Positions 19,195-52,514 of a DNA stretch of 64,000 nucleotides are shown here, piece after piece (positions within the stretch are counted from its first letter, which is position 1; each line of letters starts with the position of its first letter). This stretch comes from Candidatus Thorarchaeota archaeon. Its GTDB lineage: Archaea; Asgardarchaeota; Thorarchaeia; Thorarchaeales; Thorarchaeaceae. A program made the position numbers and the translations under genes. The stretch is from NCBI GenBank assembly GCA_011364905.1, contig RDNZ01000007.1, positions 16,394-80,393 of the forward strand, in the 5' to 3' direction. The notes below the pieces were generated by a model that did no database searches, was not told the origin of the DNA, and saw only the letters and a list, made by a program, of their open reading frames with translations.

Positions 19195-20355
19195 ATGGCA
19201 GAGATAGATCTTGACGAACTCATAGAGAACTTACTTCAATGTCGTAGGTGCGGCATCTGCCGCAATGCGGTCTATGAGGAAAGAGGATTTGATGGAGTTT
19301 GTCCGGTCTGGAAGAACTCCCCTGGGTTTGAAACCAGTTTTATGCGTGGCCGGATTCAGGTTGCTTTAGCACTCTTGGAAGGAGTTCTTGAAAAGACTCC
19401 AGAGAATTCTGAAGCGCTTTTTTCATGTACCCTCTGTGGAAACTGCACCGAAATCTGTGCCGCAGAGTTCAATCCTGCGGATTGCCTTGAGGAAGTCAGA
19501 GCAGTCCTGAATGATATTCCTAATGATGTTCGTGATGCAATAGCAGAGAAGATAATCCAGTTTGATAACCCCTATGAGAAAAACAGGAGTCTTAAACGCG
19601 AGTGGATTAAGGAGGTAGGTTTTGAGATTCCAACCTCTGGTGAAGTCCTCTACTTCACTGGATGTACTGCAGGGATGAAGCTTCCAACTGTCGTCATATC
19701 GGCAGCAAGAATACTCAAAGCCGCAAATATTGAGTTCGCGGTCCTTGAAGAGGAACCATGCTGCGGTAGCGTCATGTTGCGAACAGGAAAAACAGATGAG
19801 GCCCGTCTTAATGCACAGAGGGTAGTAAGCGCAATTCAAAAGTCTGGAGCGAAAAAAGTCATTGTTACTTGCGCAGGATGTTTAAAGACCCTTCGAGAGG
19901 ATTTTCCGAAGTTGGGACTCGAGATTCCCGAAGTCCTGCACATAACCGAGATCTTACAGGAAACTGCGGCGTGTAAGAAGCTGAAGCTCAAACCGGTGAC
20001 AAAAAGACTCAAGGTGACATATCACGATCCCTGTCACCTATCTAGAGCTATGGGAGTTTATGATGCGCCAAGAGAAGTAATCATGTCAATACCCAACATT
20101 GAGTTTGTCGAAATGGAAACAAGTAGAGAAACTGCAATGTGCTGCGGAGCTGGAGGGGGTCTTCGTTCATATGATCCTGAGCTTGCAAAGAAGATTGCCG
20201 CAGACAGAGTGATGAGTGCTCATGAAGTTGGGGCGGAGATAATAGCTACTGCGTGTCCGTTCTGCGAGAGCAATCTAAGGTTGGGAGCTGAGCAAATAAA
20301 CAGCTCAATTCGGGTTGCAGATATTGTGGACTTAATAGCTGAGCGCCTGATGTAA
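19195..20355 (+). CDS. Fe-S oxidoreductase (GlcF-like, CCG domains)
   Basis: CRRCGIC, CTLCGNC, CCG, TYHDPC, CCGAGGG. Confidence 0.85.
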   Translation: MAEIDLDELIENLLQCRRCGICRNAVYEERGFDGVCPVWKNSPGFETSFMRGRIQVALALLEGVLEKTPENSEALFSCTLCGNCTEICAAEFNPADCLEEVRAVLNDIPNDVRDAIAEKIIQFDNPYEKNRSLKREWIKEVGFEIPTSGEVLYFTGCTAGMKLPTVVISAARILKAANIEFAVLEEEPCCGSVMLRTGKTDEARLNAQRVVSAIQKSGAKKVIVTCAGCLKTLREDFPKLGLEIPEVLHITEILQETAACKKLKLKPVTKRLKVTYHDPCHLSRAMGVYDAPREVIMSIPNIEFVEMETSRETAMCCGAGGGLRSYDPELAKKIAADRVMSAHEVGAEIIATACPFCESNLRLGAEQINSSIRVADIVDLIAERLM

Positions 20356-47538: not shown

Positions 47539-48294
47539 ATGAGTCCCAAACCAGTCAATGCAATAGCAATACACTCGATTCCTGATGTCAATCCGGAGGA
47601 TAATATTCCGGAGATGATACTTGACGCAGTTCGAGAAACGGGACTTGAATTAATGGATCGAGATGTCCTGGTCATTGCTTCTAAAATTGTTTCCAAATCA
47701 GAAGATAGGATCGTTCACGCATCAGCGATCGAAGTTTCAAAGCAGGCAGAGAAGATTGCTGAAAAGAACAACTTCGACCCAATTCATGTTGAAATCGCGC
47801 TCCGCGAAGCAAATGAGGTCATAAACAGTGATGGTGTGTTAATTACAGAAACCCATTTCGGACTAGTCTGCAACTTCAGTGGTGTAGATAAGTCCAATGC
47901 TCCAGAAGGAGCATACATTCTCCTTCCGGAAAACCCGGATAGGTCTGCTGAGAGAATCCTCTCAATACTCTCTGAAAAAACAGGATTACAACTAGCTGTT
48001 ATAATATCGGATACTCAAGGGAGACCCTGGAGAAAAGGTTCGGTTAATATAGCCATAGGATGCGCAGGTATCAATGCCTACAAGCATAACAAAGGAAGGA
48101 GGGACTTGTATGGTAGGATTCTGCAACGCTCTAGTGTTTGCCAAATTGACGAAATCGCATCACTCGCAGAGCCGCTCATGGGACAAGCTGGAGAGAGAAC
48201 ACCTGTAGTCGTTGTTAGAGGTTACGAATACTCTAAGGGAAACGAAAAAGCTACAGACATAAATCGACCTAAGAGCGAGGATCTTTTCAGATAG
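47539..48294 (+). CDS. cofE: Coenzyme F420-0:L-glutamate ligase
   Basis: SKIVSKSE, SGVDKSN, DTQGRPWRKG, DLYGR. Confidence 0.9.
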   Translation: MSPKPVNAIAIHSIPDVNPEDNIPEMILDAVRETGLELMDRDVLVIASKIVSKSEDRIVHASAIEVSKQAEKIAEKNNFDPIHVEIALREANEVINSDGVLITETHFGLVCNFSGVDKSNAPEGAYILLPENPDRSAERILSILSEKTGLQLAVIISDTQGRPWRKGSVNIAIGCAGINAYKHNKGRRDLYGRILQRSSVCQIDEIASLAEPLMGQAGERTPVVVVRGYEYSKGNEKATDINRPKSEDLFR

Positions 48295-48344
48295 TACAAT
48301 GGGATAACAGAAGGGCCCTAATATGAGCCCTTCGATAGCATTAA

Positions 48345-49091
48345 CTAGTTAAGCTTCTGTCCGCATTTATTGCAGAATCTAGCACCTTGAGGATAGGGAG
48401 TTCCACAATTACCGCAAAAGCCTGCTTGACCACCAGGAACACCAGCCCCAGCTTGAGCTCCACTGGAGCCCTGAGCAGGACTTCCGCCTTCAATAACTCC
48501 ACCGCAATTGGGACATGTAGGTACATTTCCAGCATTCGTTCCGCAATATGGACACTTGCCTTGACTCTGCGCGGAGCTGACATTAGCGAGGATTGAGGGA
48601 ATGACCTTCTTTTGCTTAAAGCGAAATTCCATTGTTCCTCCGGATTTCAGCTCGACAATGAGACGATCTCCGCTCTGAGTAGCATTGCTGATTGCTAGAA
48701 GAGGCAGAGCAATGCTTTCCGTATTCCCGTGCTGATCTTTGTTATAGTACGAGTCAGCGGTCCAGGACGAAATAGCGGTTCCGACAGCTGCATAAGTGAT
48801 TCCTCTTGCAAGGGAACGAGTAACTGCTCGACCGACACCACCCATCTGTCGTCCAGCACCCTCAAGAAGTGCAGCTCCAGCTACCGCACCGGCAAGCGCG
48901 CCCCATTTTTTCAGCCCACTCCTCTTTGATGGTTTCTTGTACCACACAATACGAATATCGGTAAGCTCGAGTGAGCCATCTTCTCCGTCAAACTTTACAT
49001 CCTTCTCACGGACCATTTTCCGCTCATAGTTCATGGTATCTAGTCCTGAGCCTGAATAAGATACGGTTAAAAACTGTGGTCTATCTGACAA
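48345..49091 (-). CDS. PH/GRAM-like + double zinc-ribbon protein
   Basis: GSLELTDIRIVW...LPLLAISN beta pattern; CPYC/CPNC and CGNC/CNKC ribbons. Confidence 0.6.
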   Translation of the reverse strand: MSDRPQFLTVSYSGSGLDTMNYERKMVREKDVKFDGEDGSLELTDIRIVWYKKPSKRSGLKKWGALAGAVAGAALLEGAGRQMGGVGRAVTRSLARGITYAAVGTAISSWTADSYYNKDQHGNTESIALPLLAISNATQSGDRLIVELKSGGTMEFRFKQKKVIPSILANVSSAQSQGKCPYCGTNAGNVPTCPNCGGVIEGGSPAQGSSGAQAGAGVPGGQAGFCGNCGTPYPQGARFCNKCGQKLN

Positions 49092-49191: not shown

Positions 49192-50757
49192 CTAATCATC
49201 CAGATGGATACGCTCGGCAATCTCATCTGTCCCTCCAGACTCGATTTCATCGAGGAGTTCTTCATCGATTAACTCAATTCCAGTGGTTTCGATTGTCTCG
49301 ATTGGTTCTGGGGGAACAACAACATCACCGTTTGCCCAGGTTTCTCCTTCAATCTCTGGAGGTTCATGTCGAAAGCCCTGAACAATAAGGAGGACCCCAA
49401 TCAGGGATGTGACACCGCAAGCTGCGAGAGTTAGTGGGAATCCGATGATTGTGATTAGCCATCCAAATAGGGCAATCTGTGGAATTGCGAATATAGTGGC
49501 AATTGTGGGAAACAGAGAGTACATTGAGTTGCGAATCCTGTTTGGTATGACATCAATCAAGACTCTCTGAGTCAGAACCTCTGCGAACCCTCCAAAGAAA
49601 CTAGTTGATACAAAAGTTGTGAATATCAGCACTATTGGTAGAATGTTCTCCACAGGAAGACTCAGGAGTTGAATGTTGGTGAGAGGCCAGTACAGAATCA
49701 GTGTATCGGTACTGGTTGCAGCTGGTGGGAAGATAAGCATGATTGCAGCAAAGACCCAGAAGAAGATGAAACCGCATGTCTGCATTAAACGGAATCGTGG
49801 TATCCAGGTTTTTGGTTCGAATTTACGAGACCAGATACCTGATCGCTCCTGCGAAAAAATGCCAGGGATGAATAGCAGTGTTCTGAAACTCGCGACTCCT
49901 ACATCTGTTATCAGATAGAGGTAATACATTGGAAATAGAATGAGATTACCCCAGACCATTATACTACTTACAGCTATCATGCTGCCAATGCCAATGTAGC
50001 GGACAAAGGAATTCCTAAAGAGATAGCTTACACCACCCTTTAGTATTGAGAAGTACTCGCCCATGTCAGGACGCCCACCTTCCTGAGCTCTCTGTTCCTC
50101 GACCTCAGGGAAATCACGTACTAGTCTGAACGTAATCATGGCGAAGAAAAAGGCGAGAATACCTTGGAATTGGAAGACCCAGGCTCTTGAGAAGACAACT
50201 GCAAGAATGCTTCCAGGAATCAAAGCAGCTGTTGCCACGACCTGCATGATCATACCCATTCGGCCCCAGAAGACACCGTACTGTTTCCGGTCTGTGTCTC
50301 CAGGCATAGCAACTCTGTAGTTGTTGTCAAACCATGCACCCCAGGCCCCACTGGACTGGGATTGAGCAAATCCCTGCAGTCCGTAGATTAGAACAAGGTA
50401 GAGGTACGGTGTATCAACGGTCACAAACGAGAGCAAGAGAAAAGCCACACCAAAGGAGAGGTTTGAGGAGGCTATAATGTATCGTTGACCAATCCAATCA
50501 CCAATTGCGCCGGTTGGATAGTCGAGAGATATTTGCACAACCATCTCGATAACCACCAGAGTTCCAACCAGTCCCATGCCCTGAAGATACATTCCAGGGC
50601 CACCGCCCAGTGCCTCAGCGACGAAGATCACATAGAATGTACTGCTCAAGACAAACGTGATGTTTGCTAGTGGTCCAAGTATGGCCATGATTTTTGCCAG
50701 TCGTAGAACTTTCTCAGTGGCATCTGGCAAGCCGAGGAAGGATTTCATTCGACTCAT
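49192..50757 (-). CDS. MFS transporter
   Basis: DYPTGAIGDWIGQR motif A, ~12 TM, acidic tail. Confidence 0.8.
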   Translation of the reverse strand: MSRMKSFLGLPDATEKVLRLAKIMAILGPLANITFVLSSTFYVIFVAEALGGGPGMYLQGMGLVGTLVVIEMVVQISLDYPTGAIGDWIGQRYIIASSNLSFGVAFLLLSFVTVDTPYLYLVLIYGLQGFAQSQSSGAWGAWFDNNYRVAMPGDTDRKQYGVFWGRMGMIMQVVATAALIPGSILAVVFSRAWVFQFQGILAFFFAMITFRLVRDFPEVEEQRAQEGGRPDMGEYFSILKGGVSYLFRNSFVRYIGIGSMIAVSSIMVWGNLILFPMYYLYLITDVGVASFRTLLFIPGIFSQERSGIWSRKFEPKTWIPRFRLMQTCGFIFFWVFAAIMLIFPPAATSTDTLILYWPLTNIQLLSLPVENILPIVLIFTTFVSTSFFGGFAEVLTQRVLIDVIPNRIRNSMYSLFPTIATIFAIPQIALFGWLITIIGFPLTLAACGVTSLIGVLLIVQGFRHEPPEIEGETWANGDVVVPPEPIETIETTGIELIDEELLDEIESGGTDEIAERIHLDD

Positions 50758-50839
50758 AAGTTTTCAACACTCGGTTTTTAGTTGCGATCTCTACAAGAAA
50801 CTGAAGTGCCCTAGGCATGTAGTTATTGCCATCATGCTT

Positions 50840-51142
50840 TGGGGTTGAGATTCGTGTTTCATGTTTTTCTGACTTCCTATAGTAGCAACGGTCCCCGGAT
50901 CACACAAACGAGGACCGCTGCTGAATCTCCACATTGGGAGATTCGGAGATAGGAGATTTGTCCGATTCGACTCTGATGTGAAATTGCATTGCTCTAGTCG
51001 GCTATACTTAGACCAGTATTACACAATGCTCCAAATGACTGGACACAAATCGTCTTGTCACCTTTGGTCAAGCAGGGCTTGTCCATTGACAGGATTCTCG
51101 GTAGTGTCATCGTCATCATCACGCTTTTTTTTCTTAACCCCA
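50840..51142 (+). ncRNA. Putative 303-nt structured RNA, family unknown
   Basis: 11-bp closing stem TGGGGTTGAGA/TCTTAACCCCA with three branched domains; most wobble pairs favour +. Confidence 0.55.
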
Positions 51143-51375
51143 CATGTTAAATAGTTTGTGGGCCACACCATTATTATTAAATGGTTTGATTATAAGCATT
51201 ATTCTCGAAGCATTATTTTGTACTCCGCACTTAAATCCATCATTTTGTTGGTTTTTGGGACCAAAATTATAATGGTTGCACAGGGAGGCCATTGATTCTA
51301 CCTCCTAAAGTACATGTCAGCGATAGCACGCGTCGATACAGTCTGCGATCTGCTCTTTTTGGTCAAGCTTGTTAC

Positions 51376-51853
51376 CTCCTATAGACATGGGCATGAATAA
51401 TGGCACTTGTCTGAATGACTGCTTTCCTATCCAACGCAATTGGACAGTTGCTATTCGTTAGCGCCATGACATTTCACAACTCTCTATAGGTTGGTCACAG
51501 GATATGCTGTTTCTGAGACTAACTGACCAGTTCTGTGACCACACTGTGGCCAGAACTCAGCCACACTAGGATCTGCAGAGATCCAGCATATTGTCCGTTC
51601 AGGATTCACCAAATCGTTCACCTTGTAACGGTCAGGTAAGCATAAGTTACAGCAAAGGTCGAGACCTTTGCCTTATCGTTCTTGAGCACAGATGTTGTTC
51701 GTGAGTTAGTTGTTAGAGCCATGATATTTCACAAGAATTAGTACTCAGATTTAGTATATATAGCGAAGCCACTTCTGAGGGTCACCAGAGGGAGTCACAA
51801 TATGTGACTACTGTATACCACATAGACAAGCATATCAGGGTCCACAGGTGGCT
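51376..51853. ncRNA. Putative structured non-coding region
   Basis: Dense hairpins, no ORF of 60 aa or more, internal 23-nt repeat. Confidence 0.4.
51457..51734 (+). repeat. 23-nt imperfect direct repeat (21/23)
   Basis: GTTAGCGCCATGACATTTCACAA (51457) and GTTAGAGCCATGATATTTCACAA (51712). Confidence 0.85.
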
Positions 51854-51887
51854 CAAAATTGTATTAAGTCGAAAAACGTGAAGAACA

Positions 51888-52514
51888 ATGGCTCCTGATG
51901 ACCAGACTCAACAATTAATCGACTATTTTTCAAATATGGCGCTACAGGAATTAACGAATCAGTTCGAAGACCGTGGTTCAGCGATGCACAAGCTCTTCGT
52001 GCGGCAATTCAAGATTCACTACAACAACTATGAGCAGATGATGCCAAATCCGCTCGCAAAGAGACATGGAATCAACTCATTATTCGTGATGGCAATGGAC
52101 GATGTGATGTGCGAGGTCAGAGCATCATTCTCAGAACTCAAAGACATTGTGGTTTCAATATACCGTGCAATGCTTCAAGATTACTTCAAGAGAGAAGTTG
52201 AGAAACTTGAGGCTTCCAGCGATCCATGGCACGCCTTTGTTGAGTGGACTCGTCAAGGGAATGAAACCAACAACAACAATGAATACTTCCAAGTCAAAGA
52301 GGTTGAAACACAAGAGGGGTGCTTTGGATTCGATATTCAGAGATGTCTCTATTTTGAAATCCTCAGAGAAGCTGGAAAACCAGAGCTAGGGCCAATACTT
52401 TGCAAATATGATAGTCTCCTAGCTGAAGCCGTACAGAATTGGATCGGATTTACAAGACACGAAACAATAGCGCGTGGAGATAAGTGTTGCACATTCAGAT
52501 ACTGCAAAAAATAG
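51888..52514 (+). CDS. L-2-amino-thiazoline-4-carboxylate hydrolase-like protein
   Basis: FDIQRCLY...PELGPILCKYD...TIARGDKCCTFRY. Confidence 0.8.
   Translation: MAPDDQTQQLIDYFSNMALQELTNQFEDRGSAMHKLFVRQFKIHYNNYEQMMPNPLAKRHGINSLFVMAMDDVMCEVRASFSELKDIVVSIYRAMLQDYFKREVEKLEASSDPWHAFVEWTRQGNETNNNNEYFQVKEVETQEGCFGFDIQRCLYFEILREAGKPELGPILCKYDSLLAEAVQNWIGFTRHETIARGDKCCTFRYCKK

Follow-up and report, generated by a model that had tools for sequence, protein, structure and literature searches.

A 303-nucleotide (nt) interval at positions 50840-51142 of a Candidatus Thorarchaeota (Asgard archaea) genome (G000; assembly GCA_011364905.1, contig RDNZ01000007.1) had been predicted, from one sequence, to form a closed multibranch RNA on the plus strand. 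The window, meaning the whole stretch of DNA that was analysed, is 64,000 nt long. The conserved RNA structure in the flagged interval lies on the minus strand. It consists of two adjacent hairpins, HA (50885-50921) and HB (50923-50944), which are conserved with compensatory changes and precede, on the same strand, a gene for an MFS transporter. The element occurs as a single copy per genome and is confined to one Thorarchaeota genus and to this one gene. The flagged interval appears, with roughly even confidence on our part, to be a piece of a long minus-strand leader of the transporter gene rather than a free-standing RNA gene.

HA has 13 bp (arms 50885-50897 and 50909-50921) and an 11-nt loop (UUUGUGUGAUC in the minus sense). 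HB, which lies one nt before HA in the minus sense, has 8 bp (arms 50923-50930 and 50937-50944) and is optional. Two alignments were used to evaluate them. Alignment A1 holds 26 distinct minus-strand sequences aligned with MAFFT and is not fitted to any structure model. A covariance model was built from A1 and run on genomes, and its 35 matches, 32 of them distinct, make up alignment A2. The latter is model-fitted and hence leans towards structure, but the unfitted A1 agrees with it.

Among the 32 distinct sequences of A2, HA and HB pair in 98.2% of 544 cells, and 11 of the 21 base pairs have changed on both sides. None of 500 shuffles reaches the observed values, and a register control in which the partners were slid by 1-3 columns leaves only 32-52% pairing. 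HA taken alone is an uninterrupted 13-bp helix in 32 sequences, and 97.6% of its cells pair. Of its 13 pairs, 12 vary and 7 have changed on both sides. HB is found in 16 of the 32 distinct sequences, where all cells pair (100%) and four pairs have changed on both sides. The corresponding values in A1 are 97.9% pairing and six two-sided changes for HA and 97.3% and four for HB, again with 0 of 500 shuffles doing as well. The core of the HA loop, GUGUGAU, is identical throughout the 26 rows of A1, and 29 of the 32 distinct rows of A2 retain it.

HB exists as two unrelated sequence versions at one site, AAUCUCC.../...GGAGAUU and AAAAAUCG.../...CGAUUUUU. This looks like the insertion or replacement of a small hairpin, not like stepwise compensation. 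The second version is also seen as a variant at 50925 in a metagenome (run X1) that holds this organism, and it is carried by homologue L091, which belongs to the HB-less type. The internal loop or tandem sheared G·A motif that marks the helix of archaeal selenocysteine insertion sequence (SECIS) elements, box C/D RNAs and K-turn RNAs is not found in HA, and no Rfam SECIS or small nucleolar RNA model matched in the window, or in the gap around the element at a threshold relaxed to E 10.

The hairpins also reveal the strand. Read as minus-strand RNA, 534 of the 544 cells of A2 pair, including 59 G·U pairs, whereas the plus-strand reading pairs 479 of 544 with four G·U. This wobble asymmetry and the paired-cell counts place the RNA on the minus strand, the strand of the transporter gene. 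In G000, HB and HA fold with -37.1 kcal/mol on the minus strand (z -6.4) versus -30.4 kcal/mol on the plus strand. The original prediction had noted that several G·U pairs work only on the plus strand. That is true only of the stems that fail comparison with homologues, but in HA and HB the G·U pairs favour the minus strand by 59 to 4, and the plus-strand assignment is reversed.

The element is narrowly distributed. A BLAST search returned the stretch from 15 of 24 genomes of the genus, and no match came from 16 genomes belonging to other families of the phylum. More copies were sought in public genome and metagenome contigs with a pattern derived from the invariant parts. True homologues made up 24 of 45 and 13 of 67 loci; the remainder, chance matches in bacterial or unrelated contigs, was dropped, and the set was then de-duplicated. 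With the covariance model, 25 of 28 genomes of the genus have a match, one each, and G000 has a single match. Among 151 genomes sampled from the phylum, G000 being one of them, the model has nine matches, all in this genus: G000 and each of the eight other genus genomes drawn. No match was obtained in the 18 genomes of other genera of the family or in the 124 genomes of other families. A repeat or mobile element was considered and rejected: the 303 nt occur once in the genome, and only the far part of the surrounding gap (51472-51810) is multi-copy.

The flagged interval sits inside a gap of 1130 nt (50758-51887) that lacks any open reading frame (ORF) of at least 60 codons. One edge is the MFS transporter gene (49192-50757, minus strand; 521 amino acids, start codon at 50757; Pfam MFS_1, E 3.7e-16), and the other is a plus-strand gene starting at 51888 that encodes a 208-amino-acid protein with the Pfam ATC_hydrolase domain. 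A zinc-ribbon protein and an F420 ligase are encoded nearby. The order of MFS gene (minus), about 1 kb of intergenic DNA and ATC_hydrolase gene (plus) is retained in all 15 relatives of the BLAST set. In 23 of 24 loci from relatives, the MFS N-terminus is encoded 100-250 nt downstream of the element and on its strand; in the 24th, the MFS match is restricted to residues 413-477. Block-wise conservation extends beyond the flagged part and spans the entire gap of about 1.1 kb. A fixed position before the same gene across species and compensatory changes on the sense strand are what is expected of a structured cis-regulatory leader RNA, and both are found here. Presumably, one transcript carries the small reading frame F described below, the hairpins and the transporter.

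The predicted 303-nt RNA was compared with its homologues stem by stem. All listed stems are present in the sequence at their places, and the closing stem corresponds to the inverted repeat I8 of 11 nt, 91% complementary. The plus strand folds with -100.5 kcal/mol (z -4.52), and none of 100 dinucleotide shuffles is as good. The same 303 nt on the minus strand give -98.1 kcal/mol (z -4.58), and these near-equal z values mean that the single-sequence fold is beyond chance but does not decide the strand. For the comparison, cells were counted per pair in G000 and 15 relatives, an A·C on the plus strand being a G·U on the minus strand. The closing stem has 34 Watson-Crick (WC) cells versus 34 non-pairs, and 93 of its 176 cells are gaps, so that the closed multibranch molecule is not upheld. 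The outer stem of domain 1 has 30 WC, 29 G·U, 19 A·C and 34 other cells, a rough count since MAFFT sets the sequence of the window one column off from the other sequences there. Domain 2 scores 49 WC, 7 G·U and 14 other cells for GATTTG/CAAATC, 33 WC and 25 other for CGACT/AGTCG, and 34 WC, 8 G·U, 12 A·C and 6 other for CCAGT/ACTGG. Domain 3 scores 39 WC and 32 other in its stem and 52 WC and 23 other in its cap. HA in the same test has 180 WC, 28 A·C, 4 G·U and 18 other cells, and HB has 86 WC, 2 A·C and none of any other kind. Among homologues, pairing is therefore conserved in the two inner hairpins of domain 1, which are HA and HB, and not in the closing stem or in domains 2 and 3.

No Rfam model (Rfam 15) matches anywhere in the window at the gathering threshold. 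With E relaxed to 10 on positions 50600-52000, the sole match is a chance microRNA outside the element (51507-51577; 15.1 bits versus a gathering threshold of 74). The earlier conclusion that the stretch is neither signal recognition particle (SRP) RNA nor RNase P RNA stands, as relatives holding the element carry both on other contigs. Archaeal SRP RNA (RF01857) was found in 26 of 27 relatives on contigs other than that of the element (for example, G002 C25 versus C14 and G018 C37 versus C78), and archaeal RNase P RNA (RF00373) gave a full match of 164-169 bits on other contigs in four of the five relatives asked. All that either shares with the flagged stretch is a length of about 300 nt. 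Neither model matched in G000, the assembly of which is 80.8% complete. This assembly also lacks the 3' end of 16S rRNA, while nearly all relatives have SRP and RNase P RNA; the missing RNA genes of G000 are probably unassembled.

A single closed plus-strand RNA of a new family has the good fold of the one sequence and the lack of an Rfam match in its favour. Its probability is nevertheless close to nil in view of the split closing stem, the poorly kept stems of domains 2 and 3, the wobble asymmetry towards the minus strand and a conserved ORF on the opposite strand under domains 2 and 3. Furthermore, its modules are lost independently of each other: the ORF stretch is missing from 4 of 16 aligned sequences, and HB is absent from 16 of the 32 distinct homologues. 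What survives of the proposed undescribed Asgard non-coding RNA is a conserved RNA structure without an Rfam family; it is no stand-alone 303-nt RNA and lies inside the transporter leader.

The gap had been described as ORF-free, which is wrong at the scale of micro-ORFs. A conserved ORF of 41 codons plus stop on the minus strand (F, 50994-51119; MMTMTLPRILSMDKPCLTKGDKTICVQSFGALCNTGLSIAD) overlies domain 3 and the 3' half of domain 2. By its substitution pattern, the region of domains 2 and 3 carries the signature of a small conserved protein-coding frame. All 12 sequences that keep the stretch have F open, from a conserved start to a stop in one shared position; its length ranges from 36 to 41 codons with all changes in frame, and the shared core reads KPCLT.E[DN][KR].I.VQSFGALCNAG. 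Pairwise differences at codon positions 1, 2 and 3 number 880, 689 and 1281, and pN/pS is 0.48. In 14 of 24 loci from relatives, the hairpin model begins where an F-like ORF ends; F is absent from the other 10. Gene callers predicted F in five database clusters, all annotated as hypothetical and without a Pfam family. F likewise has no Pfam or NCBIfam match; for the micro-ORF products as a set, Pfam returned nothing at E up to 1 and NCBIfam one chance match at E 0.09. The four aligned sequences that lack F have lost its stretch by a clean deletion and retain the hairpins.

F is the last frame before the hairpins in a head-to-tail chain on the minus strand that runs A1, B, A2, A3, E, F, hairpins, G and transporter. 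A1 (51722-51618), A2 (51467-51371) and A3 are paralogues that start with MAL..N and finish with A[IL]T.AY.[YF]RR; their final codons and stop, AGG AGG TAR, also serve as ribosome-binding site for the frame that follows. All three show third-position bias (pN/pS 0.59, 0.57 and 0.50, respectively), and B does not (pN/pS 0.86). A six-frame similarity screen of the gap failed to split coding from non-coding DNA, as the conserved DNA matches in all frames. E (51134-51292, minus strand) has 52 codons, is preceded by AGGAGG and has its stop inside the 3' arm of the proposed closing stem (51132-51142). This frame is open at about the same length in G000-type relatives and broken in more distant ones, where the DNA is still conserved, and its status as a true coding frame is uncertain. 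Between the stop of E and the start of F, a run of T8 on the plus strand (A8 on the minus strand; 51124-51135) could end plus-strand transcripts in this genome; it is not conserved in relatives.

Just upstream of F on the minus strand are an A/T box (51148-51161), a palindrome ACCATT-N7-AATGGT (51167-51185) and a TATA-like box (51188-51197). All three are conserved in 16 of 16 aligned sequences, including those in which E is broken, and they may be an internal promoter with an operator for F. Three unstranded contigs of one metatranscriptome (X20; share of words 0.10) match the window with full identity, at 48215-48490, 49860-50069 and 51033-51219. The last of these spans the 5' portion of F together with the conserved boxes before it. 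Contig depth is 2.7-4.6; such a library may contain DNA, and the contigs show neither strand nor transcript ends and do not establish transcription of either strand.

Other chains of A-type micro-ORFs occur in G000 on contigs C17 (30411-32224), C11 (19294-20168), C53 (13028-14662) and C23 (approximately 19525-19845). The C17 chain leads straight into another MFS gene (MFS_1/MFS_3) of the same strand. The C11 chain is about 280 nt upstream of a gene with a tRNA_edit domain, and the C53 chain about 860 nt upstream of a GNAT acetyltransferase gene, each on the same strand. Such a mix of efflux, acetyltransferase and tRNA-editing functions recalls bacterial genes that are induced by translation inhibitors. 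The multi-copy part of the gap (51472-51810, core 51636-51810) has three further copies in the genome that are 76-89% identical (C17, C53 and C11), and the bin 51618-51818 is covered about tenfold more deeply in three DNA metagenomes. On its minus strand, a TATATATA box is followed about 32 nt on by the start of A1.

A conserved 20-nt motif (TAGAGCAATGCAATTTCACA in the minus sense; 50977-50996) begins at the end of F, its first three bases being the F stop codon. The genome holds six copies with at most one mismatch: 50977-50996 (minus), 51459-51478 (plus), 51714-51733 (plus), C11 20160, C17 32216 and C53 14654. In five of them the reverse complement contains the start codon of an A-type micro-ORF. 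The copy in the flagged element has the opposite orientation to its neighbours and reads ATT in place of the ATG of the other five; it is perhaps an inverted copy that has decayed, or else a shared binding site.

About 20 nt past this motif in the minus sense lies GGACAAAU, followed by an invariant CU-rich box (CUCCUAUCUCC in the minus sense; 50945-50955). The box is identical in all 26 rows of A1 and is complementary to purine runs of the Shine-Dalgarno type. One such run, AGGAAG (50873-50878, minus strand), is the likely ribosome-binding site of the next frame, G, and lies 10 nt before an ATG at 50862. A run of the GGAG/GAGG/AGGA type is found at the same place in 30 of 32 homologues, and in most sequences the purine run and ATG come 7-9 nt after HA. 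G (50791-50862, minus strand) has 23 codons (MKHESQ...) in G000 and 30-35 codons (MKRE...) in relatives. It is present in 9 of 13 aligned intergenic regions, and its stop lies 6-9 nt before the transporter ATG in several relatives. G has no coding signature (codon-position differences 336/395/367, pN/pS 0.66) and is probably translated for its position, not for its product. In four relatives (L016, L017, L018 and L020), the purine run directly precedes the transporter start codon, with no G in between.

The ribosome-binding site after HA is predicted to be paired with a mean probability (P) of 0.78 across 30 of the 32 homologues, two having been left out where no box or site was detected. The partner is mainly the CU box (P >0.5) in 19 of these 30 by thermodynamic prediction only. 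In the minus-strand fold of G000, UCCUAU/AUAGGA closes around HB and HA and takes in part of AGGAAG; this helix is the outer stem of domain 1 read on the opposite strand.

These predictions suggest a model in which the CU box would sequester the ribosome-binding site by pairing with it across the foot of the two hairpins. This would keep the start codon of G, or that of the transporter, closed, with the stable HA helix serving as a scaffold, and the junction would most likely be opened by ribosomes that have translated the upstream micro-ORFs. Gating would depend on translation, by analogy with bacterial leader-peptide attenuators, and we give this explanation as a whole about even odds. More specifically, and only tentatively, the leader could be an archaeal attenuator of the leader-peptide type, in which translation of small ORFs decides whether the ribosome-binding site of the cistron for this efflux-type transporter is released at the junction of CU box and hairpins. 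The near-invariant HA loop may additionally be read by a protein or by the ribosome itself. Mimicry of an extended ribosome-binding site by this loop was considered and set aside, the 16S rRNA 3' end being missing from the assembly.

Several observations weigh against this model. The invariant CU box leaves no room for covariation in its pairing with the ribosome-binding site, and a CU-rich sequence would pair with any purine-rich site. Five homologues (L146, L161, L077, L148 and L091) have the site 46-48 nt after HA, where it is predicted to pair elsewhere (P with the box 0.01-0.34). The F stop precedes the CU box by 40 nt, and a ribosome terminating there would be too distant to open the box directly. 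A frame that could bridge this distance, H, starts 4 nt after the F stop and reads through the CU box, HB and HA, but it was rejected: of 32 sequences, only 15 start it with ATG and 8 with GTG or TTG, its length varies between 5 and >45 codons, and several relatives have a 1-nt insertion that leaves just 5 codons. As neither the frame nor the length of H is conserved, coding does not explain the nucleotide invariance across the CU box, HB and HA. No conserved alternative pairing was found that would give mutually exclusive helices and link the position of a ribosome on the leader ORF to the sequestering helix. The four genomes without F keep the hairpins, and F is therefore not essential to their role. 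Finally, gating leaves the near-invariant HA loop unexplained, and this points to a specific partner.

Protein binding to HA is the main rival. HA would be the operator of an RNA-binding protein, for example a translational repressor or a processing or stability factor, that reads the loop, and the micro-ORFs would be incidental. An invariant loop on a freely varying stem is the usual signature of a protein-bound hairpin, and it describes HA, where GUGUGAU is near-invariant in both alignments while nearly all stem pairs vary. The persistence of the element in the four genomes that lost F also fits an operator, as does an HB that can be absent or swapped for an unrelated hairpin. However, none of the proteins encoded beside the element (MFS, ATC_hydrolase, zinc-ribbon protein and F420 ligase) is a candidate binder, the regulator would serve a single site given that the genome has no second copy, and the invariance of the CU box would be left unexplained. 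We consider an operator unlikely on balance. The invariant single-stranded stretches between covarying helices upstream of a transporter could alternatively reflect a ligand-binding aptamer, in which the 20-nt motif, CU box and HA form a riboswitch, perhaps through a pseudoknot between the 20-nt motif (UCACAU) and the HA loop. The candidate pseudoknot UCACAU/GUGUGA pairs in 93.5% of 184 cells, and all its single-sided changes are wobble-compatible. Yet it has no covariation: there is no two-sided change, and 500 of 500 shuffles do as well, so its support does not go beyond sequence conservation and the pseudoknot was rejected. One obligatory and one optional helix are also simple for an aptamer, and the element is restricted to a single genus and a single gene. 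With no match to any Rfam riboswitch model up to E 10 either, we consider a riboswitch improbable.

Two further readings concern where the element acts. HB, HA and their flanks could be a separate small minus-strand RNA that is either transcribed from a promoter of its own or processed out of the leader, and that acts in trans. The strong, conserved and strand-specific structure would suit such an RNA, and the CU box could bind purine-rich ribosome-binding sites elsewhere, for example, the AGGAGG of the upstream micro-ORFs. But there is no promoter-like box directly upstream of the hairpins and no U-run after HA on the minus strand, and most species keep the hairpins in a fixed position with respect to the start codon that follows, as a cis element would; we give a trans-acting RNA slight probability. 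Conservation could also act on the DNA, through transcription-factor sites between divergent genes and without any RNA function. The whole gap is indeed conserved in blocks and contains a palindrome and TATA-like boxes, and the 20-nt motif recurs at the promoter-start regions of A-type micro-ORFs. Sites of this kind would not yield compensatory changes that keep pairing, the 59 versus 4 wobble asymmetry or the third-codon-position bias, and as an account of the whole element this reading is very improbable. The 20-nt motif, the palindrome and the A/T boxes before F may nonetheless be DNA-level sites.

The proposed attenuator has parallels in bacteria. TnaC, SpeFL and PepNL are leader peptides that act by termination arrest, that is, short conserved peptides directly upstream of the regulated gene. 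The Thorarchaeota leader similarly encodes putative short conserved peptides chained to the regulated gene by stop and start signals, but we know of no counterpart of the HA/HB hairpin element in those systems. Bacterial leader-peptide translational attenuators control resistance and efflux genes, as in the ermC, cat, cmlA and tet(L) leaders. The arrangement here shares with them a short upstream ORF, adjacent hairpins, a ribosome-binding site that is predicted to be paired and a regulated gene, in this case for an MFS protein. It differs in its archaeal host and in that F ends 40 nt before the structure and does not overlap its first arm. Furthermore, no pair of mutually exclusive helices was found, the HA loop is near-invariant, and F can be deleted with the hairpins kept. 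In Salmonella, the opening of a structured ribosome-binding site before a transporter gene is reported to depend on an upstream ORF (PMC8092293). A small ORF precedes the transporter gene there, as it does here, and the start region is described as often sequestered in secondary structure; the two cases belong to different domains of life and have unrelated sequences.

Literature listings and the opening lines of abstracts name no Asgard cis-acting RNA control element beyond SECIS elements and rRNA expansion segments, and neither this element nor control by leader peptides in Asgard archaea appears in them. To our knowledge, few cis-acting RNA control elements have been described in Archaea at all. 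The example described here also carries a caution for non-coding RNA calls that are made from a single sequence, as an ORF-free, RNA-like appearance on one strand proved to be a small ORF and hairpins on the other. The element itself is compact, with a statistically supported structure, a settled strand and a fixed target gene, and it is amenable to a reporter assay without culturing the organism. If the tentative attenuator reading is true, the transporter leader of these Thorarchaeota would represent a translational attenuator of the leader-peptide type in Archaea, with a new hairpin motif.

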